Origin: Candidatus Woesearchaeota archaeon
Lineage (GTDB): Archaea > Nanobdellota > Nanobdellia > Woesearchaeales > SKIA01
Length of the DNA stretch: 64,000 bases
Direction: 5' to 3'
Assembly: GCA_046704725.1 (NCBI GenBank)
Contig: JBJKRI010000006.1
Span: forward strand, 32,001-96,000
The notes below the pieces were generated by a model. That model was given only the letters and a program-made list of their open reading frames with translations, did no database searches and had not been told where the DNA came from. Shown here one piece after another: positions 599-19,135 of this stretch. Every line of letters begins with the position of its first letter. Positions within the stretch are counted from its first letter, which is position 1. The position numbers and the translations under genes are program-made.

Positions 599-671
599 AG
601 CCCCGTGGTGTAGAGGCCAAGCATCGAAGCCTTTGGAGCTTTGGACCGCGGTTCGAATCCGCGCGGGGCTA
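599..671 (+). tRNA. tRNA-Gln(TTG)
   Basis: Cloverleaf: AGCCCCG/CGGGGCT acceptor stem, anticodon loop CTTTGGA, GGTTCGAATCC T arm, TATA at 566-573; no encoded CCA. Confidence 0.97.
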
Positions 672-16863: not shown

Positions 16864-17391
16864 TCAGCCATGCGTGAAGGGGACCGGTCCGCTCCAGCGA
16901 CCGTCCTCTTTCTCACGAAGATAGATAGTGTCGATGGGGAACTCCGTTCCAACAAGCCCGCCGAGGCGTTCCATCCGATCATCCACCGGGCCCGCGACGA
17001 TGTGCGGACGGTACCTGTCAAAGAAGACGATGTTCGAGAAGCTCCCTGCGATGAGCAGGTGAAGCGCCAGCCGCTGCCGCCAGGCATGCAGGTCCTCACC
17101 TTCAAGCGTGAGCGCCGCCAAGTCCTCGCGCGGTCCGAAACGCTCGACGCCAGTTATGCGCGCGCGTACGGGAAGCTCTTGCACATGCTCCCCTAGGATA
17201 GAACGCACTTCGTGAGGGGTTGAGACGAGATACGGTTGGCGCAGGAGCGTGATATGAAAACCGATGCCATCCGGCGTATAGCCGAGCGCGCCCAACTGGC
17301 CCCCCAACGGAGGTGCCGTGTATACCAGGAAATCCGCCTCCTCGTCCAGGACGCTCCGTGCCAAGGGACCGCTGCATGGATTGATGCGCAT
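16864..17391 (-). CDS. 2H phosphoesterase (2'-5' RNA ligase-like) family protein
   Basis: FHITL and YRPHIV paired His motifs (second degenerate). Confidence 0.7.
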   Translation of the reverse strand: MRINPCSGPLARSVLDEEADFLVYTAPPLGGQLGALGYTPDGIGFHITLLRQPYLVSTPHEVRSILGEHVQELPVRARITGVERFGPREDLAALTLEGEDLHAWRQRLALHLLIAGSFSNIVFFDRYRPHIVAGPVDDRMERLGGLVGTEFPIDTIYLREKEDGRWSGPVPFTHG

Positions 17392-18031: not shown

Positions 18032-18156
18032 GCCTCGTTCCCGGAGAGGTTGTTTTTAAGGGTTGGGGAGCTGAAAAATTTCTCACGCGGTCGCAAAATA
18101 TTCGACCGGACAGACACGGGCGCAAGGGTTAGAAGCGAGTGCAGCATCGACCCTTT

Positions 18157-19041
18157 ATGAGCTTTCGCTTGCGGTTCGAACCTGGCGTCCAGCGAGCGTT
18201 CCTCATGGAGGCACGAGAAAGGCTCGAAGGGAGCTGGAAGGACCTGGCGGAATCCATCGGCGTGGACGCCGGGTCTATGCAGGAGTGGAAAGAGGAGCGG
18301 CAGCCCTTGCCGGAGATTGCGTACCAGCGGCTCAAATGGGACCGCAGCTATGATGCGTATATCCAGGAGGTGCTACGAGCGGCAGGCACGCAACGGCACC
18401 TGCGGATGCCGGAGAAGTCCGCGGAGCTCGCGGAGTTCATGGGAGCGATCATGGGGGACGGGAACATCAGCCGCATCCGTGGCAAACCGAAGGTCGTCTG
18501 CTACGAGGTCAGAATCGCGGGGCACGGCGAGCTCGATTACGACTATCTCAAACGCCATCTCGGAGGTATTGCGTCACGGCTGTTCGGTCTTGCAGGCAAG
18601 ATGCGGTTCCACCACAGCAAGGATCACAACTGCGTATACCTGACTTTCTCGAGCAAGGATCTCGTGGAATTCCTCGAGCAGATGGGCGCGCCCGTCGGCA
18701 ACAAGATGGAACAATTTCTCGAGATACCTGACTGGGTGATCGCGGAGGATGCATTCCTCCGCGCGTACATCCGCGGCCTCTTCGACACGGACGGGAGCGT
18801 CTTCCGCATGTCCAACAAAGACCCACAACTATTGCGGATTGGCTTAACATCGTACAACCACAGCCTGATATACGATGTTCGGGCAGCGCTGCGCAATCTC
18901 GGATTCCACCCGTCAAAACCGACGAATCATGAGCGCAGGATCTATCTCTCGCGGAAAGCGGACGTACGAAAGTATTTAAAAGAAATCGGGTTCGCCAATG
19001 ACAAGCACAAGCGAAGGCTTGCGCAGTTCACAGCCCCGTAG
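18157..19041 (+). CDS. Free-standing two-motif LAGLIDADG protein with N-terminal HTH
   Basis: LAEFMGAIMGDGNI and YIRGLFDTDGSV motifs; SWKDLAESIGV..SMQEW HTH; stop TAG lies inside the tRNA. Confidence 0.9.
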   Translation: MSFRLRFEPGVQRAFLMEARERLEGSWKDLAESIGVDAGSMQEWKEERQPLPEIAYQRLKWDRSYDAYIQEVLRAAGTQRHLRMPEKSAELAEFMGAIMGDGNISRIRGKPKVVCYEVRIAGHGELDYDYLKRHLGGIASRLFGLAGKMRFHHSKDHNCVYLTFSSKDLVEFLEQMGAPVGNKMEQFLEIPDWVIAEDAFLRAYIRGLFDTDGSVFRMSNKDPQLLRIGLTSYNHSLIYDVRAALRNLGFHPSKPTNHERRIYLSRKADVRKYLKEIGFANDKHKRRLAQFTAP

Positions 19042-19135
19042 TGTAGAGGCCAAATAGTCGTGCCTTCAATGGACACTAGGTAAATCATCTTCGGCCCTGG
19101 ACCGAAGGACCGCGGTTCGAATCCGCGCGGGGCTA
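19032..19135 (+). tRNA. tRNA-Gln(CTG) with a 31-nt D-loop intron (~19054-19084)
   Basis: Aligns to tRNA-Gln(TTG) at 599 once 31 nt are removed; arm TTCGG-CCCTGGA-CCGAA; intron forms a hairpin with a relaxed bulge-helix-bulge; T-run follows. Confidence 0.9.

Follow-up and report, generated by a model that had tools for sequence, protein, structure and literature searches.

A free-standing LAGLIDADG endonuclease gene overlapping an intron-containing archaeal tRNA-Gln gene as a putative tRNA-targeting homing cassette

Introduction

Free-standing homing endonuclease genes that cooperate with a neighboring intron have been described in phages under the term collaborative homing, as with the free-standing F-CphI of cyanophage S-PM2, which neighbors the psbA intron, and mobE of T4, which is paired with the I-TevIII intron (PMC6083498, PMC2790892). 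Here, we describe a locus in a 64,000-nucleotide (nt) stretch of a Candidatus Woesearchaeota archaeon genome (assembly GCA_046704725.1, contig JBJKRI010000006.1, positions 32,001 to 96,000 of the forward strand; the whole stretch is called the window), in which the gene of a predicted LAGLIDADG homing endonuclease runs into a tRNA-Gln(CUG) gene that carries a mini-intron in its D-loop. By analogy, this system would work most like phage collaborative homing. In the phage examples, a free-standing endonuclease gene likewise adjoins a gene with an intron that lacks an open reading frame (ORF) and lies at the presumed cut site; the expectation is that the intron and the endonuclease gene spread as a pair and shield the allele that carries them. 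The window differs from them in deriving from a cellular archaeon, in having a LAGLIDADG enzyme and in its intron, which is predicted to be a protein-spliced bulge-helix-bulge intron, the phage introns being self-splicing group I introns. Moreover, the cassette proposed here would lie inside the target gene together with a replacement 5' part, and its cut site is a predicted one.

The closest described enzymes, I-DmoI and I-Tsp061I, are archaeal two-motif single chains that are tied to bulge-helix-bulge introns. However, their ORFs lie inside introns of rRNA genes, whereas the window ORF is not part of the mini-intron but starts upstream of the tRNA and extends into it, and codes for an additional N-terminal helix-turn-helix (HTH) domain. 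Seg and Mob endonucleases such as T4 SegB are encoded by free-standing genes between or beside phage tRNA genes and spread by co-conversion; these belong to the GIY-YIG or HNH families and have no ORF/tRNA overlap, gene-rebuilding repeat or intron partner. Integrase-mediated elements use tRNA genes as insertion sites and bring along a segment that replaces part of the tRNA. Like the present system, they lie within a tRNA gene, are flanked by a direct repeat of a portion of it and restore an intact tRNA gene, but here there is no integrase, it is the 5' part of the tRNA that is repeated, the endonuclease gene is the sole cargo and the presumed route is double-strand-break repair.

LAGLIDADG genes have also been reported in rRNA insertion sequences of bacteria of the candidate phyla radiation (CPR) (PMC11270868). 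These resemble the present family in matching LAGLIDADG_3, in having a variable N-terminal extension and in occurring in CPR bacteria and archaea; that study concerns rRNA insertions only, and the word tRNA is absent from its main text (PMC11270868). The 39 archaeal group I introns reported elsewhere all lie in rRNA genes (PMC6125680) and are thus distinct from the window element. No description of LAGLIDADG genes abutting tRNA genes was found in the openly accessible literature that was searched.

How archaeal tRNA introns are gained at non-canonical positions is an open question, as is whether introns protect tRNA genes from mobile DNA. On the basis of sequence comparison, we favor the reading that the locus represents a selfish homing cassette whose target is the D-arm of the tRNA and to which the mini-intron is linked in cis. 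We assign a probability of roughly 60% to this full mechanism, in which both cleavage and splicing are predicted.

Results

An endonuclease gene that runs into a tRNA gene

By its motifs and predicted fold, the window ORF is an intact two-motif single-chain LAGLIDADG endonuclease, and DNA cleavage is predicted. An ORF scan of the window gave a plus-strand frame with a GTG start (18139..19041, 300 residues); the ATG at 18157 was chosen as the start, and the resulting 294-residue protein matches the N-termini of homologs in the alignment (Table 1). LAGLIDADG_3 was the sole Pfam family over its curated cutoff in this ORF (residues 200-278, E-value 2.2e-14). In an alignment of 28 family members, the acidic residues of the two motifs, D101 and D212, are invariant (28/28), as are E93, G96, G100 and G102 in motif 1 and R206, G207, L208, D210, T211 and G213 in motif 2. 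The frame is unbroken and has all 13 family-invariant residues. A search with the family profile matched I-Tsp061I (E-value 3e-11) as well as I-DmoI and intein endonuclease domains, and profile positions 12-89 matched the MBF1-like HTH structure 2mez (E-value 7.2e-6); Pfam HTH_3 was found in one homolog (P0011).

An AlphaFold2 (AF2) model built from the 28 sequences had a predicted local distance difference test score (pLDDT) of 90.4. In the HTH region it places helices at residues 11-23, 27-33, 38-45, 53-59 and 64-75, followed by two alpha-beta-beta-alpha-beta-beta-alpha units (residues 89-175 and 198-276) that are predicted to form a pseudo-dimer. The best compact matches in Foldseek were I-DmoI and I-Tsp061I, with target-normalised template modeling (TM) scores of 0.75 and 0.72, respectively. 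WhiA and two LAGLIDADG maturases (I-AniI and bI3) were also among the structural matches.

Table 1. Coordinates of the features of the endonuclease/tRNA-Gln locus in the window
Feature	Position	Strand	Evidence
Free-standing homing endonuclease gene, HTH plus two-motif LAGLIDADG, 294 residues	18157..19041 (including stop)	+	ORF, Pfam, alignment, AF2, Foldseek
N-terminal HTH domain, about residues 1-75	18157..18381	+	Family profile and model helices
LAGLIDADG motif 1, AEFMGAIMGDG (LAEFMGAIMGDG); D101 at 18457-18459	18430..18462	+	Alignment of 28
LAGLIDADG motif 2, IRGLFDTDG; D212 at 18790-18792	18769..18795	+	Alignment of 28
TATA-like element TTTTTAAGGG upstream of the endonuclease gene; putative promoter	18053..18062	+	Sequence
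AT box TATTTAAAA inside the codons of the conserved motif KYLKEIGF, 51-59 nt before tRNA nt 1; candidate internal tRNA promoter	18973..18981	+	Sequence
tRNA-Gln(CUG) exon 1, nt 1-21; nt 1-10 shared with the last endonuclease codons and stop	19032..19053	+	Rfam, sequence
D-loop mini-intron, 31 nt, position 21/22, relaxed bulge-helix-bulge	19054..19084	+	Fold search
tRNA-Gln(CUG) exon 2, nt 22-73; anticodon CUG at 19097-19099; T run after	19085..19135	+	Rfam, sequence
Sister tRNA-Gln(UUG), 73 nt, no intron, no endonuclease gene; within-genome control	599..671	+	ARAGORN, Rfam

The original prediction, made from the window sequence alone, had described a free-standing gene without intein or intron borders whose last codons and stop are tRNA nucleotides 1-10, with a tRNA intron 13 nt past the stop and none in the sister tRNA-Gln, and this description holds in every part, as does its statement that both motifs keep their acidic residues. 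The gene has its own ATG, behind AT-rich boxes, and its own stop, with no extein flanks, and no Rfam intron family, group I and group II included, reached its gathering score within the window. The final codons ACA GCC CCG TAG span tRNA nt 1-10, the stop at 19039-19041 being U8-A9-G10, and the first intron base (19054) is the 13th base past the stop.

The tRNA itself was missed by the whole-window Rfam scan with its gathering filters and by default ARAGORN. When Rfam RF00005 was applied to 19032-19135, it scored 40.8 bits (gathering score 29) with a 35-nt D-loop insertion and the anticodon loop CCCUGGA, which identifies the tRNA as Gln(CUG). ARAGORN with the -i option proposed an Arg(cct) tRNA with a 21-nt intron and a poor cloverleaf; we regard this as a miscall, since both the Rfam alignment and the sister tRNA agree with Gln. 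Excision of the mini-intron gives a 73-nt tRNA that is colinear with the sister tRNA-Gln(UUG), and the 3' 29 nt of the two are identical. The anticodon loop has C at position 33 (window 19096), where U is nearly universal. Other tRNA-Gln(CUG) genes share this loop, namely those of L305, L306 and L188 (loci other than the window's are given L numbers and genomes G numbers, the source genome being G000).

A strict bulge-helix-bulge search on the precursor tRNA found no solution that yields the correct tRNA. A relaxed bulge-helix-bulge does so, with a 3-bp central helix (GCC 19049-51/GGU 19079-81) plus one mismatch, a 4-bp inner helix (UAGU 19055-58/ACUA 19075-78), a 2-bp outer helix and the bulges AAA (19052-54) and AAU (19083-85). 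Read by eye, relatives with an intron at the same site (e.g., L059) have a 4-bp GGUC/GACU helix. The genome encodes one EndA homolog, the candidate splicing enzyme.

The window box TATTTAAAA is the sole AT run of at least 7 nt in the last 110 nt of this ORF, and TATTTAAAAG has a single occurrence in the whole genome. Most ordinary tRNA genes of this genome have an AT box at about -35..-25. The paralog before tRNA-Ala(CGC) has the AT box TTTTTAAA at -32..-25 and the paralog before tRNA-Arg has TTTTTAA at -68..-62; these paralogs have one strong AT box per ORF in the last 110 nt, in a genome that is GC-rich. The boxes in the ORF ends are candidates for embedded tRNA promoters, which is likely for tRNA-Ala and less sure for tRNA-Gln. 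The 10-mer TTTTTAAGGG is also found about 27-33 nt upstream of the sister tRNA-Gln(UUG) and has seven copies genome-wide, counting both strands.

A family of endonuclease genes at tRNA genes

A scan of one genome per species confirmed 474 relatives, which belong to the ultra-small DPANN archaea and CPR bacteria, and the best 80 of these relatives were analyzed for tRNAs. In 67 of these best 80, the tRNA finder placed the start of a same-strand tRNA within -60..+40 nt of the stop, so the linkage to tRNA genes, which the original prediction had suggested surveying across DPANN genomes, is found in most of them. The tRNA start lay at an offset of -12 in 31 (stop at nt 13-15), of -7 in 9 (stop at nt 8-10) and of -21 or -22 in 6.

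Within the 1.18-Mb source genome, LAGLIDADG_3 matches were present at eight loci, one in a 1116-residue ORF and seven in free-standing genes or fragments. In three copies, the stop coincides with nt 8-10 of a tRNA on the same strand, these tRNAs being Gln(CUG), Ala(CGC) and, in our reading with an intron at 30/31, Arg(CCU). In one copy the frame reads through tRNA-Thr(GGU), another overlaps the 3' end of a tRNA-Tyr on the opposite strand in convergent orientation, one fragment follows tRNA-Thr(CGU), and one copy has no tRNA in sight. The ORF/tRNA junction of the window is not due to chance, because it recurs in two paralogs of this genome and in 67 of the 80 distant relatives. Five of the six endonuclease-adjacent tRNAs in the genome have introns compared to 8 of the 40 others (Fisher p 0.005, for a small, hand-curated sample).

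Several of these copies have individual features. The Arg paralog (G000:C8:57471-56536) ends with its stop at nt 8-10 of a tRNA at G000:C8:56442-56545 that ARAGORN names 'Ala(ggc)'; the better reading is Arg(CCU), with the anticodon stem interrupted at 30/31 by a 29-nt intron. The frame at G000 C7:64588-63551 stays open across the intron-free tRNA-Thr(GGU) and stops 6 nt beyond it. The 1116-residue frame (G000:C5:72546-75896) has its two LAGLIDADG_3 matches within an apparent ATPase and is probably an intein with an endonuclease.

The distribution of the family is patchy. Among 41 genomes of the same order, a match was found in 20 and none in 21, and one 97%-complete genus mate had no family match. 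Of 32 pieces from these 41 genomes, 18 have a tRNA at the end of the ORF according to ARAGORN, and by eye several more overlap tRNAs on either strand. Degenerate copies with internal stops or truncations exist. The ORF frames differ among close relatives, so that the 'fusion' to the tRNA is incidental and the ORF runs into the tRNA until the first stop. In a quick maximum-likelihood tree (IQ-TREE), the archaeal clades track tRNA identity (Gln, Glu, Gly and Asp), the CPR clade adjoins class II tRNAs without introns, and the window protein sits on a long branch (1.14). The tRNAs of the CPR clade (L083-L122, bacterial records among them) are 82-90 nt in length, with the stop often at nt 22-24, and one bacterial record (L116) has a complete second tRNA copy upstream of the gene.

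The endonuclease ORF has a GC content at third codon positions (GC3) of 0.74 compared to 0.88-0.89 in neighboring genes. Neither an integrase nor a transposase was found among the neighboring window genes; these encode MarC, PEMT/ICMT, DUF7670 and a permease, which rules out a larger integrative element. The patchy distribution, the internal stops in some copies, the low GC3 and the lack of an integrase nearby argue for a selfish element over a host function. Comparison of the sequences thus suggests a large, apparently undescribed DPANN/CPR family of selfish LAGLIDADG homing endonuclease genes that live at tRNA genes. The tRNA-targeting selfish element that the original prediction had offered as one of two possibilities is well supported by the tRNA adjacency, the patchiness (20/41), the degenerate copies, the clades by tRNA identity and seven cassettes located within tRNA genes.

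Cassettes within tRNA genes

Seven archaeal relatives (L043, L051, L060, L062, L070, L076 and L112) have a second copy of tRNA nt 1-25, which lies 900-1046 nt upstream; a tRNA TATA box in its normal position precedes this copy, and the endonuclease ORF directly follows it. Direct repeats of the 5' part of the tRNA therefore flank the gene, which means that the cassette lies inside the tRNA gene and rebuilds the tRNA. The order is old tRNA nt 1-25, promoter and ORF, new nt 1-21, the mini-intron (in five of the seven) and nt 22-73. In the five intron-type cassettes, the repeats agree as far as nt 22 and separate precisely at the site of the intron, past which the upstream copy continues with 3-5 more bases of exon 2. 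Two independent marks, the intron (21/22) and the point where the old fragment ends (nt 25), thus lie no more than five bases apart, as expected if the target of the enzyme is centered there. A convergent relative, L034, has the mirror image of this arrangement, with a repeat of the 3' part of the tRNA.

In the two intron-free cassettes (L051 and L060), 4 of 20 bases are not shared between the functional D-stem and the fragment. Mutation of the target as a second route to immunity was considered for these two and set aside as speculation, since D-stems vary between isoacceptors there anyway. No upstream tRNA fragment was found for the other paralogs of the source genome. Separately, the 5' 15-mer of tRNA-Gln occurs twice on one strand, 60-150 nt apart, at L188, L190 and in several genomes (e.g., G048:C19, G104:C46 and G122:C41); at L188 and L190 the upstream copy is a mere fragment followed by a hairpin, with no endonuclease gene. 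Such duplicated 15-mers may be tandem tRNAs or footprints of lost cassettes.

Linkage of the 21/22 intron to the endonuclease gene

The original prediction had proposed testing whether such endonuclease genes correlate with the presence of an intron. In this general form the association was rejected for tRNA-Gln, as 17 of 32 endonuclease-free alleles from 30 same-order genomes also have some intron, mostly in the anticodon loop. What stands is an association in cis with one specific site, and the putative protection by the mini-intron raised in the original prediction is supported in this narrower form only. A D-loop intron at 21/22, after GGYCAA, was present in 13 of the 30 endonuclease-linked tRNA-Gln alleles compared to 1 of 30 unlinked alleles of the same order (L297) and 3 of 64 unlinked metagenomic alleles, with Fisher p-values of 4e-4 and 1e-6, respectively, which overstate the association because relatives are not independent, the sets differ in origin and the search pattern fixed nt 10-15. 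The linked set consists of 29 alleles from the tRNA finder and L064, added by eye, with L046, L079 and L090 left out as unresolved. L282 and L299 were dropped from the same-order set for short upstream DNA, and eight pattern matches that are not tRNAs and seven tRNA alleles with short upstream DNA from the metagenomic set. The intron states of L300, L206 and L223 were assigned by eye.

A paired test avoids most of the problems of this set comparison. In 10 genomes with a linked, intron-bearing allele, there were eight unlinked tRNA-Gln paralogs, none of which has a D-loop intron (0/8); the sister tRNA-Gln(UUG) of the window likewise has none. On the endonuclease tree, the intron state shows at least 10 changes across well-supported branches and clusters no more than in shuffles, so the link does not stem from one inherited event.

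The tRNA-Gln alleles of the genus, two with the endonuclease gene and four without, provide the comparison of occupied and empty alleles proposed in the original prediction, although no near-identical pair was available for the window locus. Gene and intron at this site occur together in Gln(CUG) of the source genome and in Gln(UUG) of G004. G003 has the homologous intron and no gene, G002 and the sister allele of the source genome have neither, and G001 has an intron at another D-arm site. By synteny, no comparable empty locus was found, as the MarC neighbor is followed by other genes in four genus mates; MarC protein identity with genus mates is 51-63%, and no close occupied/empty allele pair is available for this genome. 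The tRNA lists of the genus mates, obtained with Rfam (26-37 tRNAs per genome), under-detect odd introns and were kept out of the statistics.

Discussion

We propose that the enzyme would cut uninterrupted tRNA-Gln genes around nt 21-26, in the D-arm, and that repair from the carrier allele would copy the cassette by way of its two tRNA-derived flanks. In the carrier, one copy of the target would be truncated and the other split by the intron. The 31-nt bulge-helix-bulge intron at 21/22 would travel with the cassette, and it probably shields the target in the carrier allele. Upon loss of the endonuclease gene the intron would stay behind, giving intron-only alleles such as that of G003. The host splicing endonuclease, the single EndA, is predicted to remove the intron and RNase P to remove everything 5' of the tRNA, by which the insertion would cost the host little. 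The AT-rich box in the last codons of the ORF would probably serve as the tRNA promoter.

More tentatively, and at somewhat less than even odds in our estimate, the cassettes may represent a new kind of mobile element that brings the 5' part of the tRNA and an internal promoter, with a mini-intron that makes the rebuilt gene uncuttable, and may act as an engine that creates and spreads non-canonical tRNA introns. The intron would be copied along with the cassette, or by itself where repair is initiated at the inner repeat, and would persist after the endonuclease gene decays. If this is true, the cassettes offer a specific mechanism by which tRNA introns arise at odd positions, a gain that has long gone unexplained. 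They would also constitute a third way, beside introns and inteins, for a homing endonuclease gene to reside in an essential gene without destroying its function, which is to rebuild that gene and leave the cleaning of the transcript to RNase P and the tRNA splicing enzyme. The locus and its relatives form a testable system in which the association of a nuclease gene with a single intron site holds at the level of individual alleles, the architecture of the cassette indicates where the cut would fall, and natural alleles carry gene plus intron, the intron alone or neither of the two. For annotation, the consequences are that tRNA finders miss or miscall such tRNA genes, as ARAGORN did in calling Arg, and that gene callers will give odd C-termini because tRNA bases encode them.

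Several observations weigh against this mechanism, in addition to the overstated p-values. The bulge-helix-bulge of the window is relaxed, with a 3-bp central helix and a weak outer helix, while the single short EndA type, the only one that this genome has, is strict. The internal AT box lies at -59..-51 compared to the usual -33..-26. Among the 67 loci (of 80) amenable to this comparison, the flanking repeats were found only in the seven archaeal loci and the bacterial L116. The window itself has no recognizable upstream tRNA fragment, as the weak likeness at 18126-18156 was equalled by 38 of 500 shuffles. Finally, an intron is missing from 13 of the 30 linked tRNA-Gln alleles, and the tRNAs that the CPR clade adjoins are intron-free, from which it follows that the intron is not required in general, and an intron at the same site occurs without the gene in G003, L180, L206, L223 and L297.

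These last observations are also what most favors the best-surviving alternative, namely a selfish tRNA-flanking gene of which the intron is no part. In this case, the enzyme would target the 5' border or flank of the tRNA, the insertion itself would disrupt the site, and the intron would be unrelated or hitch-hiking. The intron-free linked alleles, the whole CPR clade, the introns in unlinked same-order alleles (17/32) and the gene-free introns at the same site are all consistent with such an element. However, it leaves unexplained the site-specific excess (13/30 versus 1/30), the lack of the intron in the eight same-genome paralogs, the 10 or more state changes on the tree and the divergence of the cassette repeats exactly at the intron site, and we therefore consider it unlikely.

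Less probable still is an inactive or decaying relic, in which gene and intron would have stayed together by vertical inheritance of one old insertion, with nothing mobile today. A relic would account for the loss of the upstream repeat in the window, the long branch of its protein, the relaxed bulge-helix-bulge and the lack of a close occupied/empty pair, even the MarC proteins of genus mates being distant. It is difficult to reconcile with the intact 294-residue frame that keeps every family-invariant residue, the GC3 well under that of the neighbors, the patchy presence in the genus and the many independent combinations of tRNA and intron states in the family.

WhiA lacks the catalytic acidic residues and is conserved throughout its lineage. 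The LAGLIDADG maturases that are known act on group I introns, and it is EndA, a homolog of which this genome encodes, that cleaves bulge-helix-bulge introns. Domestication, the other possibility raised in the original prediction, as a WhiA-like regulator of the downstream tRNA or a maturase for its intron-containing precursor, would suit the N-terminal HTH, the constant position beside tRNA genes, the TATA-like box within the ORF end and the structural matches to WhiA, I-AniI and bI3, but is very improbable given the invariant catalytic aspartates, the lack of a match in 21 of 41 related genomes, including the nearly complete genus mate, the degenerate copies and the lack of a group I intron to mature at the Rfam gathering score in the window.

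Additional observations

In the course of the tRNA annotation of the source genome, ARAGORN -i reported tRNAs with 'introns' of 327-427 nt (G000 C5:743-1166, C6:199826-200309 and C6:211764-212287), which were treated as false. The motif-based tRNA finder made five false calls in coding DNA of this genome and misses tRNAs with T-loop introns, and the initiator, elongator Met and Ile(CAU) tRNAs are not all accounted for in the tRNA list of this genome. A tRNA-Lys(UUU) at G000:C6:17116-17210, for which the ARAGORN borders (17116-17189) are wrong, has a 20-nt D-loop intron with no endonuclease gene nearby.

T-loop insertions were seen in the tRNA-Gln of L281, L287, L187, L212 and L319 and in the tRNA-Pro of L012. 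Judging from these sequences, T-loop introns seem common in these lineages and seem to defeat motif-based tRNA finders. Two genes upstream of the endonuclease gene, on the minus strand of the window (16864-17391), a 175-residue ORF has a weak match to the 2'-5' RNA ligase superfamily (E-value 1e-4, under the Pfam cutoff).

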